A DNA stretch of 63,901 bases, counting the filler, from an uncultured Methanosarcinales archaeon (lineage in GTDB: Archaea > Nanobdellota > Nanobdellia > Woesearchaeales > CAYSVS01), in NCBI GenBank assembly GCA_964434475.1. It is 3 parts of 3 records of this genome, joined end to end, with 100 filler letters (N's around TTAATTAATTAA, not from the genome) between each part and the next. Parts side by side here need not be neighbours in the genome. Positions count along the whole stretch, not along the records: positions 24,286 to 47,083 come from CAYSVS010000018.1; 2 more parts are not named here. The stretch is one strand, 5' to 3'. Each line of letters begins with the position of its first letter. Positions within the stretch are counted from its first letter, which is position 1. The notes beneath the pieces were generated by a model, which had not been told where the DNA came from, did no database searches, and saw nothing but the letters and a program-made list of their open reading frames with translations. The position numbers were made by a program, and so were the translations under genes. Below, in pieces: positions 24,186 to 49,531 of this stretch.

Positions 24186-24285
24186 NNNNNNNNNNNNNNN
24201 NNNNNNNNNNNNNNNNNNNNNNNNNNNNNTTAATTAATTAANNNNNNNNNNNNNNNNNNNNNNNNNNNNNNNNNNNNNNNNNNNN
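24186..24285. other. Artificial assembly spacer
   Basis: 100 nt of N containing TTAATTAATTAA (stops in all six frames). Confidence 0.98.
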
Positions 24286-30801: not shown

Positions 30802-31513
30802 TTTCTCCTCCTTTAACAGCGAACATAAATATAAAATCCTGCTCAGATATTTCAATAACATAGATAGTATAACCTAATGCGTTATATGCGTTGATGTCAT
30901 AACCATTGTTTTCCTTCAAACTAAGCATAAGCATCAAAGGTACTTCATCTGGTTTTTCAAGAACAACATCCAGCAATTTGTTTGTCACATTAACCAAAGA
31001 ATCAATATCAACATCTATAGAATATGTAAAATCAGAATAAGCTTTTGTTGTTCCTGCTTTTGTGACTTTCATAGGATAATCAAGATTAAATGTTATCTTG
31101 CTGTTGCCAAATATCTCTATCTCTTTTTCAAAAAACTCAAAACTATAACCTTGGTTTTTCAAAGCATTGAAATCATCAAAACAAAAATCAATATTAATCT
31201 TAACCATCTTTTCAAGATTTTTTATAAAAATGCTCTTGTTTAGCTTATCGCCTAAAACATAGACAGGCACATCCCCAATATCAGAGATGATATAATCATC
31301 TGATTCAAGCATACCTCCAATATATCCTAACTGATACAATTGCTCTTTACTTGTTTGCTCCAAACATTCCTGAACATACATCTCAACATTATCAAAACTT
31401 TCAATATTTTGTTCAACTTTTCTTTCCTGCATAAATGACCATAAGAAAAACATAGCTACAATAAGTATTCCAATAATAATGTAAATTGTTATCTGCCCTC
31501 TTTTGTTCTTCAT
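30788..31513 (-). CDS. Class III signal peptide, pilin-like protein (paralog 1)
   Basis: KNKRG/QITIYIIIGILIV; YVQECLEQ...LGYIGG; CFDDF..LK.QG; LDYP; overlaps the start of the downstream secreted gene. Confidence 0.75.
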   Translation of the reverse strand: MKNKRGQITIYIIIGILIVAMFFLWSFMQERKVEQNIESFDNVEMYVQECLEQTSKEQLYQLGYIGGMLESDDYIISDIGDVPVYVLGDKLNKSIFIKNLEKMVKINIDFCFDDFNALKNQGYSFEFFEKEIEIFGNSKITFNLDYPMKVTKAGTTKAYSDFTYSIDVDIDSLVNVTNKLLDVVLEKPDEVPLMLMLSLKENNGYDINAYNALGYTIYVIEISEQDFIFMFAVKGGENEAA

Positions 31514-31550
31514 ATTAATATTATTCTTTATCATCTTAATCTCATCAAGC

Positions 31551-32051
31551 TTAATCAACAGTTGTAGTAAAAAAATCTCCATGTTTCATATGGAATAATC
31601 TTTTGCCTATGCCTTCTTCATGCTTTCCTGTTATTTTCCCTATAATAAATATATGATCTCCTGTCTCAATCTCTTTTACAACTTCGCATTCAAAATATGC
31701 CAATACGCCTTTTATCCTGCAGCAGTCTATAGAACTGCAATCTTCAATCTCAATATTAGCTTTCTCAAATTTGTCTATATGCTCTCCGCTATGCCTTCCT
31801 ACATATTCAACAACTTCCTTAAAATGTTTTGGTATGAAGTTGACACAAAAAACTTTACTTTCCCTTATCAAATGCAGACTATACCTTGTCTTTGCTATGC
31901 TTATGCCATAAAGTTTAGGTTCAAAAGACAATGGAGTATGCCAGTCAACCGCCATCACATTATCCTTTTCGATTATCTTGGTCGAAAACTTATCTTTAAC
32001 CCTGTGCCTTGTAGTCACTAAAACAGTTTGTCGTGGATAAGCTTCATACAT
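31551..32051 (-). CDS. Flavin reductase-like protein
   Basis: YPRQTVLVT, W.TPLSFEP, FCVNF, GRHSG..IDKF, ECEV...IETGDH.FIIGK. Confidence 0.88.
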   Translation of the reverse strand: MYEAYPRQTVLVTTRHRVKDKFSTKIIEKDNVMAVDWHTPLSFEPKLYGISIAKTRYSLHLIRESKVFCVNFIPKHFKEVVEYVGRHSGEHIDKFEKANIEIEDCSSIDCCRIKGVLAYFECEVVKEIETGDHIFIIGKITGKHEEGIGKRLFHMKHGDFFTTTVD

Positions 32052-32891: not shown

Positions 32892-33464
32892 TCAATCATC
32901 AATTATCAGAATAATATCTTTGTCTTCTTCAATTTGAGTTATATTGAAATTAACAAATATGTGTTCAACCAATTCAAGAATATATTCTTTTCTTTCTGAA
33001 CGCTTAAGAAAGCTCAATGCAAACTTTTTTTTGCCGACGCGCTTCATCTCTTTTAATCCTTGCTTTATATCGTCAAAATTCTGTATTGCTGTCAAACTGA
33101 GTATATAGTCAAACTCATTGTCTTTGAAAGGAAGTTCTTCTGCACACGCTTGCTTTATGAATATTTTATTTTGATTTTTTTTTATATCTTTTTCAAAACC
33201 AGCATCATTTTTCTTATTTTTATTTTGTTTATCTTCTTTTTTTATCCTATCTTTAAAAATACGCAACAACCCCTGAGAAGGATCTACAGCATATACAATA
33301 CAATCCCAATCACTGCTTATACCTGTTCCACAGCCAACATCTAACAATTTGTCATTCTTTTTTGGCTTGATGTTTTGTTTAACTATCGCAAGCTTCTTCA
33401 GCTGCTCTTCAGAATGCAATTCATCATATCCAGAGGATATAGAATCGTAGTAGTTCATCTTCAT
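32892..33464 (-). CDS. Class I SAM-dependent methyltransferase
   Basis: LLDVGCGTG, AEELPFKDNEFD, LKEMKRV. Confidence 0.9.
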   Translation of the reverse strand: MKMNYYDSISSGYDELHSEEQLKKLAIVKQNIKPKKNDKLLDVGCGTGISSDWDCIVYAVDPSQGLLRIFKDRIKKEDKQNKNKKNDAGFEKDIKKNQNKIFIKQACAEELPFKDNEFDYILSLTAIQNFDDIKQGLKEMKRVGKKKFALSFLKRSERKEYILELVEHIFVNFNITQIEEDKDIILIIDD

Positions 33465-34516
33465 CCTGCTTCTTCAACAGCTTTAAGCGCAGTTCTTGCA
33501 TTTTTGCTTACTGATGCTGTTCCAAAGACAGACTCTACAATACGAAGAAACAATCCCTTGTTTTCAGTTGCATCTTGATCAACGTAGGCCATTGCGGAAT
33601 TATCAATAATTGTTCCATCTTTTTGAACTACCATAAGGTCAATATCTTCATCCGCTCTTGGAGAATAACTTTGAAATCTGATTTCATCATCAACCTCGCC
33701 CCATCTTGCATCAAAATAGGAATATGTTGCTTTTTGACGTCCGCCTTCATTGCTCAAATAAATATCCCGCCCATTCTCTAAAGTAACGGTTGCACTTGCA
33801 TCCCTGGGTAAATCACTAAATATCCTATTAATTGTTTTTGTCTCTACTTCACCACCATCATTTGTAACCTGTTCAGTAAATTCATCAACTTGAACATCGC
33901 CACCACTAAACAATTCAATATATTTTTCACCGGTGTTAGTAACTGTCCTTCCATGCCAATCATCAGTCTTAATGCTTGCACCCGGAGTTAAACCAGCTCT
34001 GACTAGTACACCTTCTTCATCTGTAAATATCTTTACTTTCCCGTTTATCTCAACAGTCTCTATAACATCTCCATCATTATTTTTTAAATAAAGAGTGGTT
34101 TTACCAAACATTGTACTTTTTCCAGTTACATCATAAGTATTGTCACCATAAGAGATTATTTCTCCATCACCAGATGGCTCAAAGATAAGAGAATCTCCAA
34201 CACCTACACTAGAAGCTGTTTTTATGGTAACCTTACCTGAATCCTTATTATATATAATATTATCACCATCGCCTAAAAGATAGTCCTGATCACCTATTGT
34301 AACACACATAGCTTCTGAACTTTTAACCTGTAAAACGTTCCCTCGAGTTTTAAAATTACCTTTTGCATCATCTGAAAACGCAACATCATCAAAGCCTTCA
34401 ATAGGATCTTCTCCTATATCACTCAGACTTCCTGATTCACCCTCTTCCTCTGCAACAACACAAAAAGAAAGCAATAAAATCACTAAAATATAAACAAACT
34501 TCTTCATCATATTCAC
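33461..34516 (-). CDS. Secreted acidic beta-rich protein (cassette passenger 2)
   Basis: Signal peptide MKKFVYILVILLLSFCVVA; 4-nt overlap with the upstream pilin-like gene. Confidence 0.7.
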   Translation of the reverse strand: MNMMKKFVYILVILLLSFCVVAEEEGESGSLSDIGEDPIEGFDDVAFSDDAKGNFKTRGNVLQVKSSEAMCVTIGDQDYLLGDGDNIIYNKDSGKVTIKTASSVGVGDSLIFEPSGDGEIISYGDNTYDVTGKSTMFGKTTLYLKNNDGDVIETVEINGKVKIFTDEEGVLVRAGLTPGASIKTDDWHGRTVTNTGEKYIELFSGGDVQVDEFTEQVTNDGGEVETKTINRIFSDLPRDASATVTLENGRDIYLSNEGGRQKATYSYFDARWGEVDDEIRFQSYSPRADEDIDLMVVQKDGTIIDNSAMAYVDQDATENKGLFLRIVESVFGTASVSKNARTALKAVEEAG

Positions 34517-35235
34517 CTTCTCACACCAAACGCATAAACTAATGCCGAACCCTGAACATTTGAAATAGGATCTGAAACAACAAACAACTTTTCATTATCC
34601 TTTACCTGAAATAGTCTAAAATTCAGGCCGAACTGTGCATAATATGCAGGTTCACTTATATCTGGATGACTTTCAATTTCAGCAGTAACATTATTTATAG
34701 TCTCAATCATATAATTCAATCTTATTGGAAATTTCATAGTAAACTTACTAAATTCTGAAACAGAATCCCCTTGCTTGACTGTCAAAGGATAATCGACATT
34801 CAACAAAATATCTTCATCCCTTATAATAAGGTCAGAAGTTACATTTCCAACAGAAATATCAAAACCTTGTTTTTCAAAAAAATCATAAGTACAAACAACT
34901 TCTACAGGAATAGGATACATCCTACTAAATTCCCTTTGTATTATTTCTTTTGTCAATACATTTCTTAACCCACTACTATATAGATAAACAGTATCAAATC
35001 CAGGCAAAGACATCCTATCAGTAGGCTGCTCCATAAATCCACCTCTTAGGCCAGAAATTGCAATAGTGATTTCTGCAGCTTCTTCTAAACATTTTTGAGT
35101 ATAATGCTTCACTGAAGATGTATCTATAAACTCTTGTTCAATCCTTTGGGTATTTGTATAAATTAAAAATGCTGCACCCATAACCAAGAACAATCCTAAT
35201 ATTATAAACAAAGTGATTTGACTCTTTTTTTTCAT
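34513..35235 (-). CDS. Class III signal peptide, pilin-like protein (paralog 2)
   Basis: KKKS/QITLFIILGLFLV; YTQKCLEE...GLRGG; CTYDFFEKQG; VDYPL; PIRL. Confidence 0.75.
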   Translation of the reverse strand: MKKKSQITLFIILGLFLVMGAAFLIYTNTQRIEQEFIDTSSVKHYTQKCLEEAAEITIAISGLRGGFMEQPTDRMSLPGFDTVYLYSSGLRNVLTKEIIQREFSRMYPIPVEVVCTYDFFEKQGFDISVGNVTSDLIIRDEDILLNVDYPLTVKQGDSVSEFSKFTMKFPIRLNYMIETINNVTAEIESHPDISEPAYYAQFGLNFRLFQVKDNEKLFVVSDPISNVQGSALVYAFGVRR

Positions 35236-35352
35236 TTTAATATAATATAATATAATTTCCTTGTTTAAATATTTTACCTAAAAGTAAAATATGTCACTTG
35301 ATAGTTGTTATATATCCGTTAGATTTATAAATGTTAATCCAATATCTTGCCT

Positions 35353-35766
35353 ATGAGCCTAAAAGACATAGTTTTAAAGCTTAATGACTACAAATATGCA
35401 GCAGCTACAGCTTTAACAACATATGGGCTTGATAATGCAACAACATGGTATGCTTGTGAAAAATTAGGCATCCATTGTGAAACAAGAAGCATAATAATTG
35501 ATGATTTTCTAAGACATGACCCTGCTCAAGGCCTTCTTACAAGATATGCAATAGGCGGAACTGTTCTTTTAATCGGATCAAAAGCTTTAGACGTTGCAGG
35601 AAACAAAGCAGCTAGCTACGTCTCAAAAAAGTTAAGCGAAAAATTTCCTGAAAAATTCTCAGGAAAAGAGTTAAAACCAAATTTAGGTTCAATAGGATTA
35701 TATGCATATGCGCTCTACATAGCTCCTGCAGTGATAAATAATGTTTCAGTAATTCTCGACAAATAG
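35353..35766 (+). CDS. Small membrane protein (DUF5658-like), paralog of 46450-46950
   Basis: LD..TT.Y...K.G...E pattern plus hydrophobic helices. Confidence 0.5.
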   Translation: MSLKDIVLKLNDYKYAAATALTTYGLDNATTWYACEKLGIHCETRSIIIDDFLRHDPAQGLLTRYAIGGTVLLIGSKALDVAGNKAASYVSKKLSEKFPEKFSGKELKPNLGSIGLYAYALYIAPAVINNVSVILDK

Positions 35767-35836
35767 CCCCACATAAGTGATTAAATTCCAGTTAGTTTTA
35801 TAAACTTCTATCATTAAATAAATATACGTGCGAACG

Positions 35837-36874
35837 ATGGTAAAACAATACAGCTTAGACGAAATAGTAACAGAATATGATATATTAATAAATTCTAAAG
35901 CAAACAAAATATGTGATATAAAAGACAAGAATCTTCTGCATAATTTCCTAAAAGAATCATCATTATATCTGCACGCACTTCATAAAGAAATCATCAATCC
36001 AGAAACATTCAAAAAACATCTGGATATTATAAAAGGATTATCCATTTCTGAATTAAAGTTGATCAATGATTATTTATATTTTTTTGGAAAAAAAGAAAAT
36101 TATCCTATCATAGATAAGATTATCAACAAAGGAATTATTTTAGATGATTTTGAAAGAAAAGCACACAAGGTATCTATAGAATGTTATGGTTCATATAAAC
36201 CAGATAAAGATAGTGAAAAGAAAAGCTATAGAGATATGATCATTCATTTTATAAGATATATCTCAGCCATAGGCGATGAAGAAACAAGAGAACTCGCACA
36301 GAACTCAATATCAAATATCAAATCCAAAGTGTTAGACCCAATCATAAAACTATATCAAGCCACTGATAAAGGATTAAGAACAACACTCCAATTAAAAGCC
36401 TATCATCAGGAATTATATTATTTAAATGTAATAGGGATTAAAAAATATGGCATTTTTCCTCAACTTGACAGGGAATACCATACATTAATAAAAACTTATG
36501 AGAATAACAAGATAGATCTTAAAGAGATAGAAAGATACATGAACATCATAAATGGATTATCTATGGAAGATATGTTTATGATAGGGTATTGGTCAGATTT
36601 ATTAAAGCTTGATAAAAGCAGAGATATAGTAAAAAAGGTACTAAAAGATGAGACAGATGGATTAAAAGATGAACCAAAAAAAACATATGATATTATAATA
36701 GAAAAACATGAAAACCTCAAACAAAACTTCAACACAAATATGAGCTTTAAACAAACACTCATGCATTCAGTAAGACATATGTACAATAACAACAAATACA
36801 AAAGGTTAAAGCAAAAGATAGAACCTCTTCTTGAATATGTTGACAAAGATATTTTAATAATCCCGAAAAAATAA
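35837..36874 (+). CDS. Hypothetical helical protein with internal duplication
   Basis: Two similar halves, e.g. HLDIIKGLS/YMNIINGLS and SYRDMIIHFIRYI/SFKQTLMHSVRHM. Confidence 0.6.
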   Translation: MVKQYSLDEIVTEYDILINSKANKICDIKDKNLLHNFLKESSLYLHALHKEIINPETFKKHLDIIKGLSISELKLINDYLYFFGKKENYPIIDKIINKGIILDDFERKAHKVSIECYGSYKPDKDSEKKSYRDMIIHFIRYISAIGDEETRELAQNSISNIKSKVLDPIIKLYQATDKGLRTTLQLKAYHQELYYLNVIGIKKYGIFPQLDREYHTLIKTYENNKIDLKEIERYMNIINGLSMEDMFMIGYWSDLLKLDKSRDIVKKVLKDETDGLKDEPKKTYDIIIEKHENLKQNFNTNMSFKQTLMHSVRHMYNNNKYKRLKQKIEPLLEYVDKDILIIPKK

Positions 36875-36880
36875 TGTAAA

Positions 36881-39800
36881 TTAAGAATCCATTATTACGA
36901 AAGTTATATCATCCGTAAATTTTGAAGCATCATATACAGGGGTTAATAAATCTGAACTTTCCACAACTGTCTTAAATTCATCTACTGATCCGTATTTATC
37001 AGTACTCCACTTATACGCCTTGTTTAGCATTATGTTATGAACTTCTTTATTAGTATGTCCTTTACTAAAAAGATCAGATACTACTCCTGTTATTATATCA
37101 TCATCTAACCTGCCCAAAGTACTATGAGAAATATCTGTTATCCCATCAGTGTACATGAAAACCTTATCGCCTTTACCTAAAGTTAAAGCAACATCAGGTC
37201 CCTCAGTTATAGGAGTAGGAAATCCTAGTTTAGTGCTGCCCCCTTTGTCGATAAAAGAATAACTTCCATCTGGTTTGATAACTGATGTTTGCACCTCACC
37301 CATCCTTTTAAATTTCATAACTTTTGTTGATTTATCGTAATTTATCTCTCCAACAGAACAACCTGAAGAATACCAATCATCTAATTTATATATATCATCA
37401 TGTAACTGAACAAAACTCTTTCCTTCTTGAATACCTTTTTCAACTCTGTGTGAGGCTACTGCACCCGGAACACCGTGACCAGTTCCATCAAATACCTTAA
37501 CATTAATCACCTCTCCTTTCCTAGAATACATTATATTATCTCCTCCCGGAGTTATACCTTTCTTTATAAGATGAACCTGTTCAAGATCATCAGAATCAAT
37601 CTTTGAAACATATCCTAATACAATATCAGGATCCTGACTTGCTGCTTCAATGTTCATCAAGGTTGACTGCTCTGCTTGACGAGCAAACTCAATCCTTGCA
37701 TCTTTTCCATATAAATTAGCATAATTTTTAGCGATTCTTTCATTATTATGGATAGAATTTTTCAGATCGTCTATCTTTGTTTGCATCGAGATAAGATCGT
37801 CCCCTGAAGCAGAAGATAATTGCGTTTCAAGCTTAGTCAAGTCATCATCCAACAGTATATTCCTATTGTTTAATTTATTTATCCTTTCTTTCAGCCATCC
37901 AGATGTTTTGGTAGCAGGAATTCCTTGTTCATCAAGAACTGTTTTAGGTATCTCAATAGGCTTAAATTCTTTTATCACTCCTTTATCTCCTGCCTTTATT
38001 AAACCTACTGGTTTCTGTCCTATTTTTCCTTGTTGACGAAAAACAGCCATATCAACTCTTCTATAAATATCATCATAAGCATCCTGTTTAATCAAACCAT
38101 TTTTAACAGATTTACTCAATTCATCCATGTAATTTTGCATCTCCACAATTCCTTCAGCATTATCCTCTTTATTCATATAGGTTATTAACTCATCCACTTG
38201 TTTGTTTGCTGCTGAAGCAGTTTCATCAGACAATCCTACAACTTCAGAACCTTTGATAGTATCTATAGTTTCATCTCCTAAAGAAAATAATTTTGCCTGA
38301 CCTTTGTTTGCAGATAAAGAAGAATAATCATCAAGATTAAGTGTTACCTTATTAGGCAGAGTGTTTTTCAAGGATTCTACTACACGTCTGCTTGTATCTT
38401 TAAGACTTTCTACATTTGAAAAGAACCTTTCATTTATGTAGTTTGACTTTGCTTTTGACAAAGATTGAGAATAACCTGCTAATCTATTACCACCCATAAC
38501 AGGTTCTTGTACTGCTATCCCTGAAGTTCGTAAATCTCCAAGTACTGCGTTTAGATCATCCCAATATTTAGCTGCTAAAGCATTATCTCCAGCTTCTCCT
38601 GCAACTCTTATCTGTTTGACTAATTTTTCTCCTTTAGCGATAGCATTTAGATTCTTTGAACCTGGACCTATGTTCTGCAAAAAAAAAGAATCACCGGAAG
38701 TTAATCTATTTGTAACCTTACCCAGCGTGTTTCCGACAGGCTTCATCACTTTTGAAAAAGTTGGCAATAATTCATCTACAGTTCCAAAATTAAATCCTTT
38801 GCCCGCATTATAAAGATTCTTTACTCCATTACTTAAGGATGATGCGCCAGGTATCTTGCTCAATGTTCCACCTACTGCAGTCGTTATGGTTGTAAATTCA
38901 GGAGCTAATCCTAATCCTTTAAGTGCACTAAATCCCAAAGTGCCTATAGTCAATGGATCTCCTGCAAACATCTGCGATATTTCACCGTATTTGTCCAATG
39001 ATTCAGGACTTGCTTCTAGGCTTAACACCTTATAGTTTCCCTCAATCAAATTTTGGATAGAACTCTGGCTGCCAAGCGCTGCAGAAGTCAATGTTGTCAA
39101 TAAGCTGCCTGTTGTTAAATAATCTAACTTTTCTTGAGCTTTTTCACCATATTCTACTGATTTTGTAGCTAGCTCATAATGAGGTATAGCTAAAGCAGAA
39201 TCATACATATCTTCCATAAGATCGCCAATCTCGATGCTATACTTAGCAGTATCTATGTTTCCATTCTGGTATTGATCAGCAGACTGTTTCAAATAAGGAT
39301 GCTCTACTGCAGATTTTAAGTCATTGAATTTTTCAACATAAGTTTTTTCAGGAGACAATTCTCCTCCTCCTAAAAGATTAAACTTCTGCTCATTATCATT
39401 TGAATTCACAAAAGTTTGTATTTGATTAGGTGTCAAACCTTTATCCAACAAACCACTATATACTTCAAAACCATCAGCATATCTTTGAGCATCATTTAAT
39501 GCAGCCTCTGCTATAACAAGCTGATCCTCCTTAACTCCTAAAAGGTTAAATACATTTATTGACCTGAAAACTCCTGTTGCAATCTTGCCAGGAAGAGAAA
39601 CAGAACTTGGATCTGCTATAGATTCTGCATCTATCTTTTTCTCAGCATAGTTTTTTTGAGCAAATTTTAAATCGCGTTGTATCTTTACTAGATCCTTTCG
39701 AAATTGCTCTTTTGCCAGCTTATTTTTACTTTCTGATACAGTATCAAAATACAATGAATCTTCATCAATATTATTAAGATGTTCATAAACAGAAGCAACA

Positions 39801-42427
39801 TCTCCATACATAGACGCTTTTGCTAATTTATAGAATTCAACAACATCGTCGCTTCCTTCTATCTTGCTTGCTGTCTCTATAGATTTATCAAACTGAAGAG
39901 TATTTTTGTACGCTTCTGCCTTTAACTCAAATAATCTTCTGTCTATATGTTCTGCTAAAAGTTCACCCTCTACCATATTATTTCTTTCATCACTCAATAC
40001 TTGAGCGTAAGCTTGTTCGATAAGATCAGATGATTCCATCTGCAAAGATTCCATATTAGACATATGCTGGTCTAATTGTTCAACATAGCCAGCTATCTTC
40101 TCCTGACTCAAAGCAGCATCTCCATAAGGCACCATATCCCACCAAGCAGCCGCTTTTTCTAAGATGCCCAGGTTTCCTTCTGCAATCCTATTCGCATATT
40201 CCCTATTCTGTACACCGCCAATAAGGGAATTTAACTTATCTATCTCTTTTTGTTCAGCTTGTATCCTATCTGAATAAGATCTTATCTCATTCAATGTTTC
40301 AGCATCAACATTTCTAGAAACTATATCATCAGCAGCTTTCCTCAACAATATATCTTTTTCATATTTTTCATTTAAAGCAGCATATCTTGCTTCATCTAGA
40401 TATTGTTTTGGAGAATTCAATGAACCATAATCATTTATATTTTCATTTAATTTCATTGCCAGCTTTGGATTAGTATTCTCTAAAGACATCGCTAATTCTC
40501 TTGCTTCTTGATATTTTTCTTGCTCCAACAAATTATTAATCTCTTCATTAAGCGCAATCTCTGAATCAGAAGCAAATACTATTTCATTACCTCCATAGTA
40601 ATCTCCCAGATAGCTAATTATAGCGTTTCTTTCCCCATCACTATATCCAATAACGCCTGCTCTGTTTACATCCAAAAGATTATCGCCTTCAAGATTCAAC
40701 AAAGATAATCTGTTTTTCATAAGAACCTGAGCATCATTTTTTACATATTCACTTAACCTTGGAAAATCTTCAACAGACAATGAGATAAGATCATCATTGA
40801 AACCAAAGCTTAATGTATCTTTTTTCGCTATACCATTGCCAAGATTATATACTATGCCTTTTGTTATTGTTCCTGTTCCTTTCTCATACATATAATCCAC
40901 ATCGTTTTCCCTTCTGAAACTAAACTTACCCTCTTCAAGATGTGTCTTGAAATAATCAGCAACATCCTTATCGCCAAAAGAAAACTCAAAACCATGATTC
41001 ATATTAGCCTCTTCAGCCACGGCATTTATTACAACATTCCCTGAATTATATTCATAATCAAGATTGTTCCCATATGATTTTGAAAAAGAATCAAAATTAC
41101 CCTGCGAAACATCAAACTTGCCCCTCATGCTTAAAGTACCATCTTTCTCATACACAAAATTCTTAAGAGGCTTGTACTTCTCAAAAGGCAGCCTATCTTC
41201 AGATATATGCAAAGGAGAATCTATATCTACTGGTTTTGCTATAGTACCAGTAACATGGTTCTGGTAAGATGTTATTCCATCTTGATTGAATAAGGTATAA
41301 ACATTGTTTGTTCTCCTGAATGTTCCTGATAATGTCTTGTGTTCATCAACAGCATCATCTAACTGTCTTAATATCCCAACAACAGTATTCTTTGCATCAA
41401 AATTTCCTTTATTGTCAAAAGCAAATCTTCCTTCATAGCTTTTTTTAGTATAACTAGTTCCTGCAAGGTTGATATCAGCCCATACATCTCCTTCCATAAT
41501 CCTTCTAAAAGAATTAATCTGGACAACTGACTTCAAAGAAGCATCAATTGGAAGCTCATCGCTTGAGATATCAAGAACTAAAGGATTTATTGAGGACTTA
41601 TACAAATTATTACCTTCAAAAACTTCCATACCTTGAATATTGGTTATCCTTGTCCTATCTGAAAGAACATCAATCTCAAAATCACCTGATGCTGATATTT
41701 TTCCATAATAATTGCCTTGAGATATTGAATATGAGCAAGATTTGGCATCAATAGTATTTCCAAAAACATCAATAATCCCTTCATCATCTGCATTTATGTC
41801 TATAACTTTTCCAAGATTAACATCATAGAACTTAAGATAAGCATCTTTACCAGATATAGTATATGAACCATCTGGTCTGATCATAATATCTCCGTTAAAC
41901 TCATTGCCTGCAATATTTCCAAAGCCCGATGAAATCAGATTATTATCCTGATCAACAAAAATATCTCCAATAAGGTCAAAAGACTTTTGTTCAATAACTA
42001 CCCTAAATCCGCCTTCCTTAAGCGCAACAATACCTGTTATATCATTCCTTTGTTTTATGTCTTCTATGCTTATAGTATTTCCATCTCCATTCGTAAGTAT
42101 TTTAGTATCAGGATTGTAATCTACTTTAGATACAGAACTAAAATCAAGATCAGGGGTTATTCCCAAATACTTTTTGAACTGTTCATAATACTTAGCTACA
42201 TTCTCGCTATCTTGTGCATAAAAAGAGTCAAGTTTTTCCATATTAGCAGGATTTGACAACTGCTCATCGCTTAAAGTTGTAATAGAATCAGAATTATCTA
42301 TTATGTTTTGCCATTGGCTGTCAGATATTTCTGAATCATCATTTGGAGCGATTATATTAAAGGAAAGCATAATCACTAATAAAAATAATACAAACATCCT
42401 TCTCTTTATACTTTTTTCAATCCTCAT
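36881..42427 (-). CDS. Giant secreted protein (1848 aa) with TPR-like helical region and C-terminal SpoIIE/PP2C-type phosphatase domain
   Basis: N-terminal signal peptide; C-terminal motifs VFDGTGHGVPGA, GDKVFMYTDGITD, DDITFVIM. Confidence 0.8.
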   Translation of the reverse strand: MRIEKSIKRRMFVLFLLVIMLSFNIIAPNDDSEISDSQWQNIIDNSDSITTLSDEQLSNPANMEKLDSFYAQDSENVAKYYEQFKKYLGITPDLDFSSVSKVDYNPDTKILTNGDGNTISIEDIKQRNDITGIVALKEGGFRVVIEQKSFDLIGDIFVDQDNNLISSGFGNIAGNEFNGDIMIRPDGSYTISGKDAYLKFYDVNLGKVIDINADDEGIIDVFGNTIDAKSCSYSISQGNYYGKISASGDFEIDVLSDRTRITNIQGMEVFEGNNLYKSSINPLVLDISSDELPIDASLKSVVQINSFRRIMEGDVWADINLAGTSYTKKSYEGRFAFDNKGNFDAKNTVVGILRQLDDAVDEHKTLSGTFRRTNNVYTLFNQDGITSYQNHVTGTIAKPVDIDSPLHISEDRLPFEKYKPLKNFVYEKDGTLSMRGKFDVSQGNFDSFSKSYGNNLDYEYNSGNVVINAVAEEANMNHGFEFSFGDKDVADYFKTHLEEGKFSFRRENDVDYMYEKGTGTITKGIVYNLGNGIAKKDTLSFGFNDDLISLSVEDFPRLSEYVKNDAQVLMKNRLSLLNLEGDNLLDVNRAGVIGYSDGERNAIISYLGDYYGGNEIVFASDSEIALNEEINNLLEQEKYQEARELAMSLENTNPKLAMKLNENINDYGSLNSPKQYLDEARYAALNEKYEKDILLRKAADDIVSRNVDAETLNEIRSYSDRIQAEQKEIDKLNSLIGGVQNREYANRIAEGNLGILEKAAAWWDMVPYGDAALSQEKIAGYVEQLDQHMSNMESLQMESSDLIEQAYAQVLSDERNNMVEGELLAEHIDRRLFELKAEAYKNTLQFDKSIETASKIEGSDDVVEFYKLAKASMYGDVASVYEHLNNIDEDSLYFDTVSESKNKLAKEQFRKDLVKIQRDLKFAQKNYAEKKIDAESIADPSSVSLPGKIATGVFRSINVFNLLGVKEDQLVIAEAALNDAQRYADGFEVYSGLLDKGLTPNQIQTFVNSNDNEQKFNLLGGGELSPEKTYVEKFNDLKSAVEHPYLKQSADQYQNGNIDTAKYSIEIGDLMEDMYDSALAIPHYELATKSVEYGEKAQEKLDYLTTGSLLTTLTSAALGSQSSIQNLIEGNYKVLSLEASPESLDKYGEISQMFAGDPLTIGTLGFSALKGLGLAPEFTTITTAVGGTLSKIPGASSLSNGVKNLYNAGKGFNFGTVDELLPTFSKVMKPVGNTLGKVTNRLTSGDSFFLQNIGPGSKNLNAIAKGEKLVKQIRVAGEAGDNALAAKYWDDLNAVLGDLRTSGIAVQEPVMGGNRLAGYSQSLSKAKSNYINERFFSNVESLKDTSRRVVESLKNTLPNKVTLNLDDYSSLSANKGQAKLFSLGDETIDTIKGSEVVGLSDETASAANKQVDELITYMNKEDNAEGIVEMQNYMDELSKSVKNGLIKQDAYDDIYRRVDMAVFRQQGKIGQKPVGLIKAGDKGVIKEFKPIEIPKTVLDEQGIPATKTSGWLKERINKLNNRNILLDDDLTKLETQLSSASGDDLISMQTKIDDLKNSIHNNERIAKNYANLYGKDARIEFARQAEQSTLMNIEAASQDPDIVLGYVSKIDSDDLEQVHLIKKGITPGGDNIMYSRKGEVINVKVFDGTGHGVPGAVASHRVEKGIQEGKSFVQLHDDIYKLDDWYSSGCSVGEINYDKSTKVMKFKRMGEVQTSVIKPDGSYSFIDKGGSTKLGFPTPITEGPDVALTLGKGDKVFMYTDGITDISHSTLGRLDDDIITGVVSDLFSKGHTNKEVHNIMLNKAYKWSTDKYGSVDEFKTVVESSDLLTPVYDASKFTDDITFVIMDS

Positions 42428-43461
42428 TCCACAACAAACCTCACATCAACTGAATCAACAGCTCTTTTTTCGTCAACTACACTGATAGTGGTTTCATATT
42501 CTCCAGGAGAATCAAATCTTTTGGATATCAATCCAGTATCCTCATCAATAGGAATATAATCATTTGATGATTGAAAAAATAATCTATCAAGATCATCATC
42601 AGATGCTAAGACATTATACTCAAAAACAGTGCCAGAAGTAATCTTAAAATCAGGCAATGGCTCAAGCAGAGGTCTTGAGTTTGGCTGTGTTTTTTTAACA
42701 AAACTGAAAATATAAGGCTCATGGAACATGTCTGAGTAAGGATCAACGATTGAGTAAAGTATAGTCCTTTTATCGAAAGGCACTATCATAACATCATAAC
42801 CAAGAACAGTAAATCCAGTTAATGAAACAGAATTTTCAATATCCATATTATTCAGCACATCATCAACTATCTTTCCTAGTCTTACAGGAACTGCAACTAT
42901 GAATCTGTCTATATTTGTTTTAGTGTTGCCAGAACTCGCACTTATTTCATAATCAAGCTCAACTACAACTTCTTCTGGATTTATCAAAGTTTCAACAACC
43001 ATATCTTTTGCTTCAACATTTATTCCTTTTCTTTTGAATACAGAAAAATCATCCAAGCAAAGTCCAATATTTTCTTCAATATATCTATTTATACCCTTCT
43101 GCATAAAATTCATATTAAAAAAAGTATTACTGTCATCCACTATACCATAATCCCTATATTTAGTAGAATATACCATAAGAGAATTTTCAGCAGAGTATAA
43201 TATGCCTCCTCTTTGACCTAATAGATACACTGCATCTTCTGTTGTTTGTTTTAAACATGAACTTACAAAAGAATACAACCCTAAAGAATCATCAGAAATC
43301 TTGATTGAGGATCCAATATCTTCATCTACAGAAAGATTGATTATCAACAAAATGACAGAAGAAAATAGAAGCATAAGTATCGCTACTATTATAAATATAC
43401 TTATCTGCGCTTTTTTATTCTTATCTTTATTAATCATATTAATAATCACACAATTATTCAT
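42424..43461 (-). CDS. Class III signal peptide, pilin-like protein (paralog 3) with C-terminal cadherin/Ig-like domain
   Basis: KNKKA/QISIFIIVAILML; FVSSCLKQ...LGQRGG; CLDDF..FKRKG; PVRL; C-terminal N.RP.L...F.Y.V.ASD.D.D.L.F...ID..TG.I......G.Y..TI.V.D. Confidence 0.78.
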   Translation of the reverse strand: MNNCVIINMINKDKNKKAQISIFIIVAILMLLFSSVILLIINLSVDEDIGSSIKISDDSLGLYSFVSSCLKQTTEDAVYLLGQRGGILYSAENSLMVYSTKYRDYGIVDDSNTFFNMNFMQKGINRYIEENIGLCLDDFSVFKRKGINVEAKDMVVETLINPEEVVVELDYEISASSGNTKTNIDRFIVAVPVRLGKIVDDVLNNMDIENSVSLTGFTVLGYDVMIVPFDKRTILYSIVDPYSDMFHEPYIFSFVKKTQPNSRPLLEPLPDFKITSGTVFEYNVLASDDDLDRLFFQSSNDYIPIDEDTGLISKRFDSPGEYETTISVVDEKRAVDSVDVRFVVE

Positions 43462-43501
43462 TTAATTATTCAATTAATTTTTATAAAACAGCAATCCTAA
43501 C

Positions 43502-43630
43502 TCATACCTTAAATCTGCTAAAATCATAGCTCAATGCTTTTATCCTTTGCACTTCTTTTATATTCTTAATCTGCTCTACGCTTATCTTCTGATTAAGCTG
43601 TCTTGCTTTCTCAAAATTCGTTAAATTCAT
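43502..43630 (-). CDS. 42-aa micro-ORF coupled to the AbrB gene
   Basis: MNLTNFEKARQLNQKISVEQIKNIKEVQRIKALSYDFSRFKV; strong SD AGGAGG; ATGA overlap. Confidence 0.55.
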   Translation of the reverse strand: MNLTNFEKARQLNQKISVEQIKNIKEVQRIKALSYDFSRFKV

Positions 43631-43791
43631 CTTTTATCTCCTCCTTTATCTAGAACCAATCTTCCTTTTTCATCAAAGGAAAAATTCAGAACATCGCCTT
43701 TTTTCCAGCCTTTGGCTTCAACAATACTTTTAGGTAATGTTATTGTGTATTGTTTCTTGTTTGGAAACTGTAGTCTTGATCTTGCTGCCAT
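43627..43791 (-). CDS. AbrB/MazE/SpoVT family DNA-binding protein (54 aa, missing from the ORF track)
   Basis: MAARSRLQFPNKKQYTITLPKSIVEAKGWKKGDVLNFSFDEKGRLVLDK: ITLPK.I....GW..GD.L swapped-hairpin signature. Confidence 0.85.
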   Translation of the reverse strand: MAARSRLQFPNKKQYTITLPKSIVEAKGWKKGDVLNFSFDEKGRLVLDKGGDKR

Positions 43792-43979
43792 TTATGTTCG
43801 CTCCACATTATATATAATTATAATAATATTAATAGTATTACTTATATATATACTTTTTGTTTTTCATTTAATTCTTAATATATGTATTTTTAATAATATT
43901 AATATTTATACTAATATATATATATTTTTCTATTATTACAATCCAAATATTTATAAATCAAAATCAAATCCTATGAAAT

Positions 43980-44783
43980 ATGCAAAACAAAATACAGAAT
44001 TTGCTTAAAGAATACACAAAACACGACCATATTAAATTGACAAGCAGAGGAAATATGTCAATATTTTTAGCTATGTATATGGCAAAAAAAGAAAATTCCA
44101 AACCTTATTTCCTCATACCTGATCAAGGAGGATGGCTAACATACAAAACTTATCCAAAGATATTCAACTTCAACATTAAAGAACTCAAGACAGATAAAGG
44201 CATAATAGACTTAGAAGAACTTAAACAAGTCGCAAGAAAATGTTCCGCATTACTTTACTCAAATCCTGCAGGATATTTTGCTGAACAGCCAGCAAAAGAA
44301 ATATATGAGATTTGTAAAGAAGAAGAATGCTTAGTAATAATGGATGTTTCAGGATCTATAGGCAACGAGATATGCAATGGAGAATATGCAGATTTTATGG
44401 TAGGAAGCTTTGGAAGATGGAAACCTGTGAATGTAGAATATGGAGGTTTCATAAGCGCAAAAGAACAATGGCCAGATAAAAACATATTCTCACTTTACAG
44501 AAGCTGCGACGAGAAACTGCAGCAAATATATGAAAAACTAAAAGAAGCTCCTGAAAAGATCAATTCATTTATGCAAAAAGCTGAAAAGATTAAACAAGAC
44601 CTCAATGAACTTGAAATCATCCATAAAGATAAGAAAGGGATCAATGTTGTTGTTGCATATAAGACTGATTTTGAAAAGACAAAAATAATAGAATATTGTG
44701 AAAAAAATAATCTAGAATACACTGAATGCCCTAGATACATAAGGGTAGAAGAGCCGGCAATAAGCATAGAAATAAAGAGATAA
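43980..44783 (+). CDS. PLP-dependent transferase-like protein (DegT/DnrJ-like fold, short)
   Basis: TSRGN, IMDVSGSIG, GSFGRWKP...YGGFI. Confidence 0.6.
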   Translation: MQNKIQNLLKEYTKHDHIKLTSRGNMSIFLAMYMAKKENSKPYFLIPDQGGWLTYKTYPKIFNFNIKELKTDKGIIDLEELKQVARKCSALLYSNPAGYFAEQPAKEIYEICKEEECLVIMDVSGSIGNEICNGEYADFMVGSFGRWKPVNVEYGGFISAKEQWPDKNIFSLYRSCDEKLQQIYEKLKEAPEKINSFMQKAEKIKQDLNELEIIHKDKKGINVVVAYKTDFEKTKIIEYCEKNNLEYTECPRYIRVEEPAISIEIKR

Positions 44784-47083: not shown

Positions 47084-47183
47084 NNNNNNNNNNNNNNNNN
47101 NNNNNNNNNNNNNNNNNNNNNNNNNNNTTAATTAATTAANNNNNNNNNNNNNNNNNNNNNNNNNNNNNNNNNNNNNNNNNNNN
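47084..47183. other. Artificial assembly spacer
   Basis: 100 nt of N containing TTAATTAATTAA. Confidence 0.98.
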
Positions 47184-47231
47184 GCAATTAATCTAAAAAG
47201 CTAAGCTAAACAGCAATTATGCAAAGTTCTC
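47184..47231 (+). mobile_element. Terminus (putative right end) of the IS5-like element
   Basis: Identical in reverse complement to 24135-24182; ends AATTATGCAAAGTTCTC. Confidence 0.75.
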
Positions 47232-49392
47232 TAAACAATTTATCTTTATCATTTGTTACATATAAAGTAAATTGCATCGAGTTTTTTGTAAAGCCATCAT
47301 CTCCTATTATTTCAACTTTAAGTCTATATCTTCCTTCCTCTGTTGTATCTGGAATGTTTAGACCTATATTTTCACTCCATGCTTTATCTTCTATCTCATC
47401 TATATACTCAGATGCGCTTATGCCTAATTCTGGAACGCTTACTTTTACTTTGATATTTTTTTGTGTCTTATCGCTGTCGTGCTCAATAAGAAATTTCTGT
47501 AATATTATCTTTCCTGGTTCAACTACATTGCTTGGATATATTTCTGGAATAAGAATTTTAAAATTTACTTTTGATTCTTCTTCATTATGTTCACATATGC
47601 TTGGTTTATCTCCTTTGATTGCATCACATACTGCTTTTTTCACCGCTGAATATGTCTTAGCTCCAGTATATTCTTCTCCGTTGATTAATAAGGTTGGGCT
47701 TTTTGCTACATCGTATATTTCCATCATATCAATGTCGTAGTTGAACTTATGTGTGATTATCTTTTTTATGTCCATAATCATATTATTCCATAAGTCTATC
47801 TCTTTTTCTGTTATGAAATCTCCAAACTCTTGTTCTATGTTTTCTGCAAAGCATTGCTTTATTTCAGTATCTGTACTATAATCATCAACGCAATCTAAAG
47901 AGAATTTAATAAGCGCTTCTTTTTCATCTCCTAGTTCATCTAGGCATTGGTCAAATTCGCTGTATGTGTTTGCATCCATTAAACATTTAAAATCCTTGTC
48001 TTCCATAATCTCAAAATAATCCCCTGTATCTCCTACAGTATAGAAAAATGCCTGTAATGCGTTTGTCAGAACTTCTAATTTTCCGTGCATTGCGTAGTAG
48101 TCTGCAAAGCTTTCATTACTGCTTTGAGATAGATTCTGCATAAATATAGGAGAATATGTTATATATTCCTCAAAATCTTCATATATCTTTCCAAGCTCTG
48201 GTTCAAGTTGTATACTATAAGGACATTTGGACCTCTTGAAGAACATTAGCTCTACTTTGTCCTCTACCTTTATATTATAGGTTAAATCTTGATTCTTTTC
48301 CCCTTCAAATTCTAACTTTAAAATATATTGGTCCTCGTCAGAAAGCAGTTCAATATCACCTACTATCATAGGTATAGGGCCTTCATCATTAATGTTAATT
48401 GTCCATGCTTCTAAAACAGTTCCATATATTTTTGACATCAATTTATATGATATTTTGTCTATATCATAATTAGTATTAAAATACAATTTATACTTGTTCT
48501 TGTCAGAATTTTTGTTTAATATGATGTTTTTTCCTTTTGCTAGCTTTCCGTTGATCATCAACATATGGCTGAATACCTTTTCTATATCGCTTTCTTCTTT
48601 TTGGTAGACTATCATCTGGCCATTTTCCTGTTTTTGGATATATGCCTTGTTGCTAGTATAGTTTTCAAACATATTGGATAATGCATTTACAGCAATTTTC
48701 AATATATCATCACTTCCTCCAATTATCAATAATTGCTTGTAACCATTGTTTTCAATCAATTCTATATATGCTTCATTTTCCTCTAATTTAGGATATGAAT
48801 TAAGAAACTGCTTAAACATACTGTTGCTTTCTGCTGTTCCTATTATAATCAGATTCTGCTCGCTGTAAGGATAACCTATCTCTGATTCAAGCTTAGCAGC
48901 TGGAACGTTTAGGTCAATCAATTTAGTCATTGAGAATTCAACAATTTCTGCATTGACATTAGCTTCATTATCTGGTATGCTTTTTATCTCAATCTGAATA
49001 TTGTTGCCTAATGTTTCAATATCTCCCTCTTTTAAGGAGCTTGTAGTTAAACCATTAATCATAAGCATTGTTTCTTTAGAATCGTGTGAATCAGAAACAA
49101 TGATACATTCTACAGTATATTCTTTTTCGAAAAATATATATGTTTTGATTTCTCCTTCTTGGATAGTATCTTTAAAATTTCCTTTATTGGAAAAGTAATA
49201 TTGCAGATCTGTCAAAAGATCAACAGCAGCTATAACATGCTCTGCTGGAGCATTGTCTCCAACAACAACCTTTGCGTTAAAATTATCATCAAGAAACATC
49301 TCTGGATAATCTGATAGGTCTGCTGCGACTGCACAGCTCATCAATGCAAAAAAAATAGTGATAGTGATCAGTGTTTTCATAAGTTTCTTCAT
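47206..49392 (-). CDS. S-layer-domain surface protein with thioredoxin-like and Ig-like domains, 3'-truncated by the IS
   Basis: Signal peptide then ADLSDYPEMF....VVVG.NAPA.HV.AA.D (S-layer N-domain); FF..SKCPY and SPTL.ING..Y.G; the last residues RELCIIAV* are encoded by the IS end. Confidence 0.7.
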   Translation of the reverse strand: MKKLMKTLITITIFFALMSCAVAADLSDYPEMFLDDNFNAKVVVGDNAPAEHVIAAVDLLTDLQYYFSNKGNFKDTIQEGEIKTYIFFEKEYTVECIIVSDSHDSKETMLMINGLTTSSLKEGDIETLGNNIQIEIKSIPDNEANVNAEIVEFSMTKLIDLNVPAAKLESEIGYPYSEQNLIIIGTAESNSMFKQFLNSYPKLEENEAYIELIENNGYKQLLIIGGSDDILKIAVNALSNMFENYTSNKAYIQKQENGQMIVYQKEESDIEKVFSHMLMINGKLAKGKNIILNKNSDKNKYKLYFNTNYDIDKISYKLMSKIYGTVLEAWTININDEGPIPMIVGDIELLSDEDQYILKLEFEGEKNQDLTYNIKVEDKVELMFFKRSKCPYSIQLEPELGKIYEDFEEYITYSPIFMQNLSQSSNESFADYYAMHGKLEVLTNALQAFFYTVGDTGDYFEIMEDKDFKCLMDANTYSEFDQCLDELGDEKEALIKFSLDCVDDYSTDTEIKQCFAENIEQEFGDFITEKEIDLWNNMIMDIKKIITHKFNYDIDMMEIYDVAKSPTLLINGEEYTGAKTYSAVKKAVCDAIKGDKPSICEHNEEESKVNFKILIPEIYPSNVVEPGKIILQKFLIEHDSDKTQKNIKVKVSVPELGISASEYIDEIEDKAWSENIGLNIPDTTEEGRYRLKVEIIGDDGFTKNSMQFTLYVTNDKDKLFRELCIIAV

Positions 49393-49531
49393 TTTTATAG
49401 CCACCTTTGAGATTGTTATCACTGTAAAGTAAAGTTTATTTATAAATCTAATTGTTATTTTATGTTTTTTCTTGATTTTTGTCTATTTATAAATGAAAAA
49501 AATTATAAACAGAGCCATAATTCTTTATTAT

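Follow-up and report, generated by a model that had tools for sequence, protein, structure and literature searches.

Results

A giant gene with a predicted export signal and a SpoIIE/PP2C end

In the window, by which we mean the whole analysed stretch of 63,901 nucleotides, N runs at 24186–24285 and 47084–47183 separate three contigs of a single metagenome-assembled genome, namely C17 at positions 1–24185, C18 at 24286–47083, and a third contig from 47184. The subject of this study is a gene on C18 for a protein of 1848 amino acids (aa) that ends in a SpoIIE/PP2C phosphatase domain, and its genuine genomic neighbourhood is that contig. The gene content of the window is archaeal and of the small-genome type (proteasome, FttA, TrmB, and a RuBisCO large-chain homologue; GC content 31–35%), and the genome amounts to 1.5 Mb at an estimated completeness of 97%. 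In ESM Atlas, the family of the 345-aa protein encoded next to the giant is labelled ‘hypothetical protein’ and comes mostly from Woesearchaeota, with Big_9 in 14–16% of its members. The source organism is a Woesearchaeota-like (DPANN) archaeon. Genomes of the same order are denoted by G-numbers, G000 being the own genome of the 1848-aa protein, and surveys cover 201 genomes unless another scope is given.

The open reading frame (ORF) runs from an ATG to a stop codon over exactly the 1848 aa that a preceding sequence-only reading had claimed, which had left its minus strand unstated. A frame of this length in DNA of such GC content excludes chance. In the Logan assembly of sequencing run X1, which was made by an independent assembler, a 19,638-nt contig spans positions 36400–43700 with 0 differences and no gaps, and an assembler chimera at the PP2C junction is thereby ruled out; run X1 is probably the source sample, so that this contig serves as a check of the assembly and not as independent data. 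Two other sequencing runs of the same study contained next to no sequence words of the locus.

The protein begins with a K/R-rich segment (MRIEKSIKRR) followed by a hydrophobic core at residues 11–29, which has a Kyte-Doolittle value of 2.19 and is the sole transmembrane (TM)-grade segment of the whole chain. Family members begin with comparable signals, and the N-terminus looks like an export signal, in agreement with the signal peptide predicted earlier. The first 600 residues are acidic, with 11–19 D+E versus 7–13 K+R per 100 aa. When residues 1–650 were modelled by AlphaFold2 (AF2) without an alignment, a short helical head followed mainly by strands (aa 100–340 and 424–542) was obtained, at a predicted local distance difference test score (pLDDT) of 37 that is too poor for a fold search. 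Thus, of the acidic, beta-rich region of about 550 aa that had been described, the acidity is borne out by composition, and the beta-richness appears only in this low-confidence model. The following residues 650–1630, about 980 in number, were predicted by AF2 to be wholly helical, mostly at low confidence; this fits the helical part of the ‘TPR-like/coiled’ region of the earlier description, and no TPR family was found there in Pfam.

The Gly/Ala-rich stretches pointed out earlier are present at residues 1101–1198, and membrane-grade hydrophobicity was not found in them: their 19-residue hydropathy is merely 0.66–1.0, and their summed insertion values on a Hessa-type scale are 6.8–8.6 kcal/mol versus 1.5 kcal/mol for the signal. 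By the same 19-residue hydropathy, no TM helix lies between the putative sensor part and the PP2C domain (internal maximum 1.0). Likewise, in all 10 complete family members, which reach 4,967 aa, the N-terminal segment alone is TM-grade. The helical linker between the Gly/Ala-rich module and the phosphatase domain has no detectable relative, as a search of residues 1090–1640 against 300 other genomes of the order gave merely two weak matches at chance level (E 0.004 and 0.007).

The C-terminal domain matches the Pfam family SpoIIE (PF07228) at residues 1643–1772 with 33.1 bits (cut-off 25), covering profile positions 7–142 of 192, and with 35.3 bits in a six-frame scan of the genome. When aligned with 19 SpoIIE domains from the order, the protein keeps the motifs GGD (D1630), DGTGHG (D1647), YTDG (D1761), and DD (D1839/1840), each Asp falling in an invariant or near-invariant column, and it ends 5 residues past the DD motif. 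The motifs GD, DxxGHG, TDG, and DD are presumably the metal-binding positions of PP2C domains. Modelling by AF2 with the 19-domain alignment gave a pLDDT of 80–95 over residues 1630–1848, and a Foldseek search with this model returned 91 PDB matches at E≤0.001, led by RsbU of Rv1364c (3ke6, 4e-9), SiaA (6k4e), RsbX (3w40), and Stp, with tPphA and SpoIIE also among the matches and the Legionella effector Lem3 lower down at E 1e-5. All 30 of the 30 ESM feature neighbours of the domain are SpoIIE clusters. The terminal PP2C domain with its Asp motifs, as proposed from the sequence, was therefore confirmed by profile, motif alignment, and fold. It is an intact-looking and ordinary SpoIIE member in these three respects; what is extraordinary is its setting. 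The domain shares 12–20% identity with the other SpoIIE domains of the order, has Glu in the G-H motif where most of them have His, and is the most divergent SpoIIE match of its genome (35 bits versus 76–77), which also encodes ordinary cytoplasmic SpoIIE proteins in frames of 363 and 505 aa.

Searches of whole databases returned little beyond the protein itself. A word-index search with the full protein found itself alone among 7999 scored candidates, as did HMMER with residues 1–1200 against 1.84 billion representatives; residues 1560–1848, compared with shorter proteins, had no match at E≤0.01 among 1513 candidates, and the full protein had 0 matches in 40 related genomes. By sequence, the PDB held no match to the whole protein and a chance-level one to its C-terminus (6k4e_A, E 0.95). 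Pfam returned SpoIIE alone, and NCBIfam, PADLOC, and PHROGs returned nothing for the 1848-aa protein or its neighbours, so that these library scans gave no sign of a virus or a known defence system.

The gene belongs to a cassette conserved across the order

Directly upstream of the giant gene lies the gene of a 345-aa pilin-like protein, whose TGA stop codon lies within the ATG start codon of the giant gene in an ATGA overlap. Its N-terminus (KKA/QISIFII) resembles the class III (prepilin) signal of archaea, which Pfam did not confirm with a pilin match. Among 11 aligned family members, the pattern K-[GAS]-Q-[IV]-[TS]-x-F-I-I with the subsequent hydrophobic helix is kept in 11 of 11, Q19, C69, and C135 are invariant, and the C-terminal part is Ig/cadherin-like; paralogues in the own genome start with K-R-G-Q-I-T-I-F-I-I-G. 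No family in Pfam, NCBIfam, or PHROGs matched the protein, yet its relatives are present in 189 of the 201 genomes of the order, with 12 matches in the own genome. Filament machinery is encoded elsewhere in this genome (two T2SSE matches over the cut-off and two of Peptidase_A24), none of it on C18.

To the 23 best relatives of the 345-aa protein that were listed, 19 readable downstream regions belong, the other four being left out (two contig ends, one unpublished genome, and one internal stop). In 19 of 19, the product of the next same-strand gene is large and starts with a hydrophobic, signal-like segment; contig ends cut seven of these proteins, and the complete ones range from 507 to 7,993 aa. 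The cassette, a pilin-like gene followed by the gene of a large signal-bearing protein, is conserved across the order. Fifteen of the 17 downstream proteins scanned matched no Pfam family at E≤1e-4.

The large proteins themselves are linked to one another through their N-terminal parts in a loose similarity network. With phmmer and the N-terminal 900 residues in a set of 21 sequences, the 1848-aa protein matched those of G004 (4e-7) and G095 (2e-4). When the 3654 ORFs of the own genome were searched with a profile of 10 syntenic relatives, built without the 1848-aa protein, this protein came first (E 1.3e-5) and the runner-up reached 0.037; the detectable shared core is residues 311–470. This match is significant because synteny narrows the search, and it is too weak to survive correction for a whole database, which is why the search of 1.84 billion representatives found nothing. 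In addition, a Gly/Ala/Thr-rich, uncharged 40-residue module occurs at about residues 950–1160 in six long members (the 1848-aa protein and those of G004, G117, G073, G076, and G094), and comparable 40-residue modules precede the enzymes in G009 and G137. The sequence similarity of the modules is weak, KIPGASS here versus KTIPGATT in G076 giving E 0.0026 in the six-sequence set.

The C-terminal content differs among the relatives, the N-terminal homology being weak and the divergence too high for module boundaries to be drawn. A search for homologues with a common N-terminal part and different C-termini had been suggested, and such relatives were found, with a weakly shared N-terminal domain, a Gly/Ala module at a matching position, and varying C-termini; the outcome named as contrary, in which a true TM helix is invariably followed by a terminal PP2C, was not seen among them. 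The 1848-aa protein is, judging from synteny and profile, not an orphan but a fast-evolving cargo of the order-wide cassette. A 1848-aa frame following a pilin-like gene in G073 was discarded as a counterpart, for its length is a coincidence and it has no PP2C domain; a 1849-aa frame in G123 was also rejected as an equal-length orthologue, as it is bounded by a masked stretch and is part of a longer gene with SpoIIE near its start.

PP2C-bearing cargo recurs in the cassette across four different families of the order. A SpoIIE scan found matches in 34 of the 201 genomes, eight of which have theirs within an open frame of at least 1,849 aa. Giant frames of published genomes comprise a 7,993-aa protein in G137 (G137:C18) with a weak DEAD match, Metallophos, SpoIIE, and a long HEAT array; an 11,421-aa protein in G083 (G083:C13) with Metallophos, an M48 peptidase, an ABC1 kinase, SpoIIE, and a RIO-like kinase; a 12,045-aa frame in G044 (G044:C21) with FHA, Metallophos, Pkinase, SpoIIE, and again FHA; and a 6,464-aa protein in G009 (G009:C1) with PP2C_2, PPDK_N, and PEP-utilizers. 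All of these sit behind a signal peptide. The pilin-like gene lies directly upstream of the giants in G009 (E 9e-128), G137 (3e-88), and G083 (2.5e-37). Two further frames come from unpublished genomes, for which the consent of the depositors is needed: one of 1,933 aa in G122 (G122:C70), truncated at the start of its contig, which joins SpoIIE to a HopA1 effector-family domain (1.5e-18) and a protein kinase and has 0 of 9.2 expected glycosylation sequons (defined below), and one of 3,145 aa in G113 with SpoIIE. In the last ~330 aa of the G083 protein and at the C-terminus of that of G076, a small Cys-rich module follows a Gly-rich linker.

This recurrence bears on whether the enzyme matters at all. 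The 1848-aa protein could be an envelope structural or fibre protein, in which PP2C is a recent and possibly inactive addition and the scarcity of sequons and Cys described below results from packing or S-layer passage. The long predicted helical region, the lack of an enzyme in most family members, the divergence of the PP2C domain, and its Glu in place of His agree with a fibre. However, the four metal-binding Asp positions are kept in a domain that is modelled with high confidence, and PP2C and other phospho-enzymes recur in at least three other cassettes of different families, which speaks for selection on the enzymes. We consider a fibre with an incidental phosphatase very improbable.

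Glycosylation sequons are nearly absent from the cargo proteins

Sequons were defined as N-x-S/T with x not being Pro, their expected number was calculated from composition, and figures are given as observed/expected. Despite 130 Asn and 246 Ser+Thr residues, the 1848-aa protein has 0/16.9 sequons, while 5000 global and 5000 block-wise (local) shuffles never gave fewer than 5. Control motifs occur about as often as expected in the same chain: S/T-x-N 13/16.9, D-x-S/T 22/20.9, and N-x-A/G 19/17.6. A similar depletion was found in the relatives, with 7/201.0 sequons in 18 downstream proteins and 7/206.0 in five giant frames of published genomes, where the individual giants of 6,464–12,045 aa contain 0–5 sequons versus 40–76 expected. 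The controls were again close to expectation, S/T-x-N being 199/201 and 175/206 and D-x-S/T 302/286 and 267/265 in the 18 proteins and the giants, respectively. Taken family-wide, about 14 sequons were observed versus 400 expected over 71,000 residues. All 5 sequons of the G083 protein are confined to its final 40 residues, which follow a hydrophobic segment.

The depletion extends over the parts that follow the hydrophobic stretches. Residues 1201–1848 of the 1848-aa protein have 0/5.3 sequons (P=0.005); G137 has 0/13.6 after its TM-like cluster, G009 0/8.1, the enzyme region of G083 0/24.4, and G044 0/27.7 and 0/24.2 between and beyond its clusters. In 17 short cytoplasmic SpoIIE proteins from this order, by comparison, the count is 25/31.2. 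Among the ORFs of the own genome, which has an AglB/STT3 gene, the secreted-like set has 626/489 and the cytoplasmic-like set 734/775 sequons, and two adhesins of ~5,000 aa are sequon-saturated (258/89.7 and 226/77.8). Cysteine is scarce as well, with 2 residues in 1848 (1.08 per 1000) versus 17.5 per 1000 in secreted-like and 11.4 in cytoplasmic-like ORFs.

When the ORFs of the own genome with at least 4 expected sequons were compared, zero-sequon proteins made up 5/33 of the secreted-like versus 0/32 of the cytoplasmic-like set, and 4/5 of the former directly follow a pilin-like gene. The fifth (G000:C74:2590-4947) is a signal-bearing protein of 786 aa with a Cys-rich acidic middle and 0/5.0 sequons; it lies 229 nt from the end of its contig and is the sole one of the five whose upstream neighbour a contig end conceals. 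Neutral drift in a cytoplasmic protein cannot clear all sequons, which indicates that these chains meet the oligosaccharyltransferase and that glycans on them would be harmful. The loss of sequons, which extends beyond the hydrophobic stretch, speaks for an extracellular PP2C end.

These counts speak to an alternative that had been offered together with the toxin-like one, namely a giant sensor-phosphatase in the archaeon's own membrane, with about 1100 aa outside, the Gly/Ala stretch spanning the membrane, and a cytoplasmic PP2C of the kind seen in RsbU, SiaA, or SpoIIE. SpoIIE-type PP2C domains are normally cytoplasmic, as are the two ordinary ones of this genome, and their typical companions inside cells include FHA, kinase, and HEAT modules. 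A membrane-spanning protein would, however, leave one cytoplasmic side free to regain sequons, so that the purge on both sides, in the 1848-aa protein as well as in the giants, speaks against a span of the producer's membrane. The low hydropathy and high insertion cost of the stretches point in the same direction, and no partner-switch gene (STAS antagonist or RsbW/SiaB-type kinase) was recognised by Pfam or NCBIfam in the block and the neighbouring ORFs, the rest of the genome lying outside this search. The sensor is thus disfavoured, and we regard it as improbable.

The other alternative keeps the protein outside the cell throughout. As a secreted or surface enzyme, it would remove phosphate from a partner's surface or matrix phosphoproteins or serve in phosphate scavenging, possibly displayed on a type IV filament in the manner of PilY1. 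The signal peptide without any further TM segment, the pilin-like gene directly upstream together with the type IV filament ATPases and prepilin peptidases of the genome, and other paralogous cassettes of the same genome, which carry the adhesin-typical domains fn3, Ig-like, and CarboxypepD_reg, are in line with such a role. Against it, the adhesin-like cargo proteins of these paralogous cassettes are unpurged (11/16.0, 29/41.5, and 5/7.4 sequons), and giant adhesins of this genome that bear enzymes are sequon-saturated, which indicates that a surface enzyme needs no freedom from glycans over its full length. An enzyme acting extracellularly would leave the whole-length purge of proteins of up to 12,000 aa unexplained, and we know of no extracellular substrates for PP2C, kinase, FHA, and HEAT modules. 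We consider this role unlikely, albeit one to be taken seriously.

The surrounding block is variable within the genus

The 1848-aa gene and its pilin-like partner lie in a block of ~10.5 kb between a methyltransferase gene and an aminotransferase-like gene (Table 1), which also contains a second, smaller cassette and two orphan plus-strand genes. The flanking genes are 10.5 kb apart here and 0.5 and 0.9 kb apart in the congeners G001 and G002, and since the block is missing between them there, it is variable within the genus. A homologue of the methyltransferase gene also comes after the cassette in G076 and G071, members of other families. The site is consequently old, and the congeners are as likely to have lost the block as this genome is to have gained it. 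The two orphan genes (139 and 348 aa) end 7 nt from the stop codon of the giant gene. The 348-aa convergent protein was found in 0/200 other genomes of the order, and neither protein has a family in Pfam. As for an immunity gene downstream, no same-strand gene occurs for 1.6 kb past the giant gene.

The second cassette consists of a 240-aa pilin-like paralogue (BLASTP E 1e-13 versus the 345-aa protein) and a 351-aa secreted acidic protein with 0/2.5 sequons. A sister cassette outside the block contains a 264-aa pilin-like paralogue overlapping the start of the gene of a 630-aa signal-bearing protein with 0/4.9 sequons, the last 180 residues of which match T6SS_VgrG3-like_C at 3e-45. It is among the four zero-sequon proteins mentioned above that directly follow a pilin-like gene. 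The VgrG3-type domain is a peptidoglycan hydrolase of the type VI secretion spike, and the 630-aa protein may be a wall hydrolase that this archaeon secretes.

Two genes on the other contigs deserve mention. A 738-aa protein combines an S-layer-like outer domain (S_layer_C) with a GILT-type thiol reductase domain and could be an exposed disulfide reductase. The match of a 231-aa ORF abutting a P-type ATPase gene is confined to the second half of the barrel domain of pyruvate kinase; the ORF may encode a form of this enzyme that is truncated or split.

Table 1. Positions of the 1848-aa gene, its predicted parts, and other features in the window.
Feature	Position	Strand	Basis
1848-aa gene	36881–42427	minus	ATG-to-stop ORF
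Predicted signal peptide or signal anchor, Sec-type, aa 1–29	42341–42427	minus	hydropathy
Acidic N-terminal region, aa 30–640, beta-rich in low-confidence model; weakly common to the cassette family	40508–42340	minus	phmmer, profile, AF2
Detectable shared core, aa 311–470	41018–41497	minus	profile of relatives
All-helical predicted region, aa 641–1100	39128–40507	minus	AF2, mostly low confidence; no Pfam family
Uncharged Gly/Ala/Ser/Thr-rich hydrophobic module, aa 1101–1200, not TM-grade	38828–39127	minus	hydropathy
Helical linker, aa 1201–1624	37556–38827	minus	AF2 helices; search of the order
SpoIIE/RsbU-type PP2C phosphatase domain, aa 1625–1848	36884–37555	minus	Pfam, motifs, AF2, Foldseek, ESM
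345-aa pilin-like gene	42424–43461	minus	class III-signal-like N-terminus
Variable block with both cassettes and two orphan plus-strand genes	33465–43979		absent in both congeners
Methyltransferase gene (flank)	32892–33464		
Aminotransferase-like gene (flank)	43980–44783		
Second small cassette	33461–35235	minus	BLASTP, translation
240-aa pilin-like paralogue	34513–35235	minus	BLASTP, translation
351-aa secreted acidic protein	33461–34516	minus	translation
Sister cassette	28969–31582	minus	
264-aa pilin-like paralogue	30788–31582	minus	
630-aa signal-bearing protein, candidate wall hydrolase	28969–30861	minus	T6SS_VgrG3-like_C match
738-aa S-layer/GILT-type protein	47206–49422	minus	S_layer_C, GILT-type domain
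231-aa partial pyruvate kinase-like ORF	20828–21523	minus	barrel domain, second half

Discussion

A tentative effector acting on a partner cell

Based on these observations, we tentatively read the 1848-aa protein as an exported, modular, glycan-free protein of the effector type that acts on a partner cell, and give this reading not quite an even chance. From the toxin-like delivery proposed in the sequence-only reading, the targeting for export, the PP2C end, the lack of an internal TM-grade segment, and apparently variable C-termini were all found, and the sequon purge has been added; the delivery step itself is what we infer.

If so, the chain would leave the producer via Sec and pass the oligosaccharyltransferase AglB, and selection would keep it free of glycans and disulfides because later unfolding, threading, or insertion is required. 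Bringing the chain to the partner cell would fall to the conserved N-terminal domain, probably together with the pilin-like protein translated alongside it; there, the Gly/Ala hydrophobic module may engage the membrane of the partner and not that of the producer. The C-terminal PP2C domain, or the kinases and phosphoesterases of the giants, would then act on phosphoproteins of the partner cell. Extended to the family as a whole, the cassette might represent an undescribed archaeal system that delivers enzymes into partner cells by Sec export, threading, and insertion through the Gly/Ala module, with interchangeable payloads; this extension is possible, and we hold it rather doubtful. With similar reserve, the payloads of such a system would be PP2C here, kinases, FHA, calcineurin-like phosphoesterases, PPDK-like, and HEAT modules in the proteins of 6,464–12,045 aa, and a wall hydrolase in the sister cassette.

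Several points weigh against the effector reading. The N-terminal homology is modest (21.6 bits) and insignificant at the scale of a whole database, and the giants of G009, G137, and G083 are tied to the 1848-aa protein by synteny, architecture, and composition with no sequence similarity to it, direct phmmer comparisons with the giant frames giving only weak PP2C-level matches. In G137 and G044, TM-grade clusters precede the enzymes in a receptor-like arrangement, which also favours the own-membrane sensor. Cleavage of the signal is uncertain, with a Pro at +1 of the likely site IIA/PN. The hydrophobic module matches no known translocation domain in Pfam or NCBIfam, is weak in hydropathy, and is modelled by AF2 at a pLDDT of 24–40. 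Concerning the purge, merely 1.0 sequon is expected in the PP2C domain alone, and the secreted-like and cytoplasmic-like sets derive from a crude hydropathy rule applied to naive ORF calls. Moreover, sequon loss denotes selection against glycosylation without implying the reason, and S-layer passage, fibre assembly, or enzyme folding could be the cause instead.

DPANN archaea depend on other cells, and their means of acting on these are barely known. The family described here consists of predicted exported proteins with normally cytoplasmic enzymes such as phosphatases and kinases, marked by the absence of sequons beside sequon-saturated surface proteins. If the purge reflects the need to stay translocation-competent, it would offer a cheap genome-wide finder of archaeal effectors and concrete candidates for host manipulation, and if the delivery reading is true, the total absence of N-x-S/T would be an effector signature in any archaeal genome. 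Should the purge mean something else, it would still be a very strong and unexplained selective signal. In literature searches at the abstract level, no paper was found on secreted DPANN proteins that lack sequons or carry PP2C.

Comparison with known systems

With the PPM phosphatases SpoIIE, RsbU, RsbX, and SiaA (PF07228; 3ke6, 3w40, 6k4e, and 5ucg), the 1848-aa protein shares the fold, the four Asp motifs, the size of the domain, and its C-terminal position. Those enzymes are cytoplasmic, stand behind sensor or TM domains, and function in partner-switching, whereas the domain described here stands behind a predicted Sec signal with no further TM-grade segment and in a sequon-free chain.

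A PP2C fold that is used on the proteins of another cell is known from Legionella, where SidD is reportedly a PPM-fold translocated effector (PMC3656104). The likeness extends to Lem3 (8alk/8anp) and consists in this use of the fold; the archaeal domain differs in that it ends an 1848-aa protein predicted to be exported by Sec, whose delivery is the conjectural step.

A broader parallel is with polymorphic toxins and contact-dependent inhibition proteins (of the CdiA, Rhs, and MARTX types), which are large exported proteins with variable enzymatic C-termini. Common to both would be an N-terminal part that runs through the family, a middle that is hydrophobic or helical, and enzymatic ends that vary; fast evolution and presence or absence in close genomes are further likenesses. 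Unlike those toxins, however, the archaeal proteins have no domain in common with them (Pfam, NCBIfam, and PADLOC), no trafficking or pre-toxin domain (these libraries and PHROGs), and no conserved immunity gene; they carry signalling enzymes instead of nucleases or deaminases, and the producer is an archaeon without an outer membrane.

Among DPANN archaea, the SPEARE proteins of Nanohaloarchaeota are reportedly giant surface proteins with protease, adhesion, and endonuclease domains that are thought to act on the host. They are similar in coming from a small-genome, symbiont-type archaeon and in being very large, exported, and enzyme-bearing. SPEARE-type domains were not found by Pfam in the 1848-aa protein, which is moreover sequon-free where the adhesins of its own genome are saturated.

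PilY1 with PilVWX forms a tip and minor-pilin set of type IV pili that includes a large non-pilin partner. The cassette resembles such sets in that the gene of a pilin-like protein with a class III-like signal motif is translationally coupled to that of a large, predicted Sec-exported protein, the filament machinery being encoded at other places in the genome. For archaea, type IV filament loci with adhesin-like genes have been described (PMC13705601). The cassette differs from PilY1-type ones in a neighbour without a Pfam pilin match, in having no PilY1-like domain, and in a cargo that carries a phosphatase and not an adhesin domain. Set beside all of these systems, what most merits attention is the cassette family together with its compositional signature, a family that is widespread in the order and unnamed in the libraries searched.

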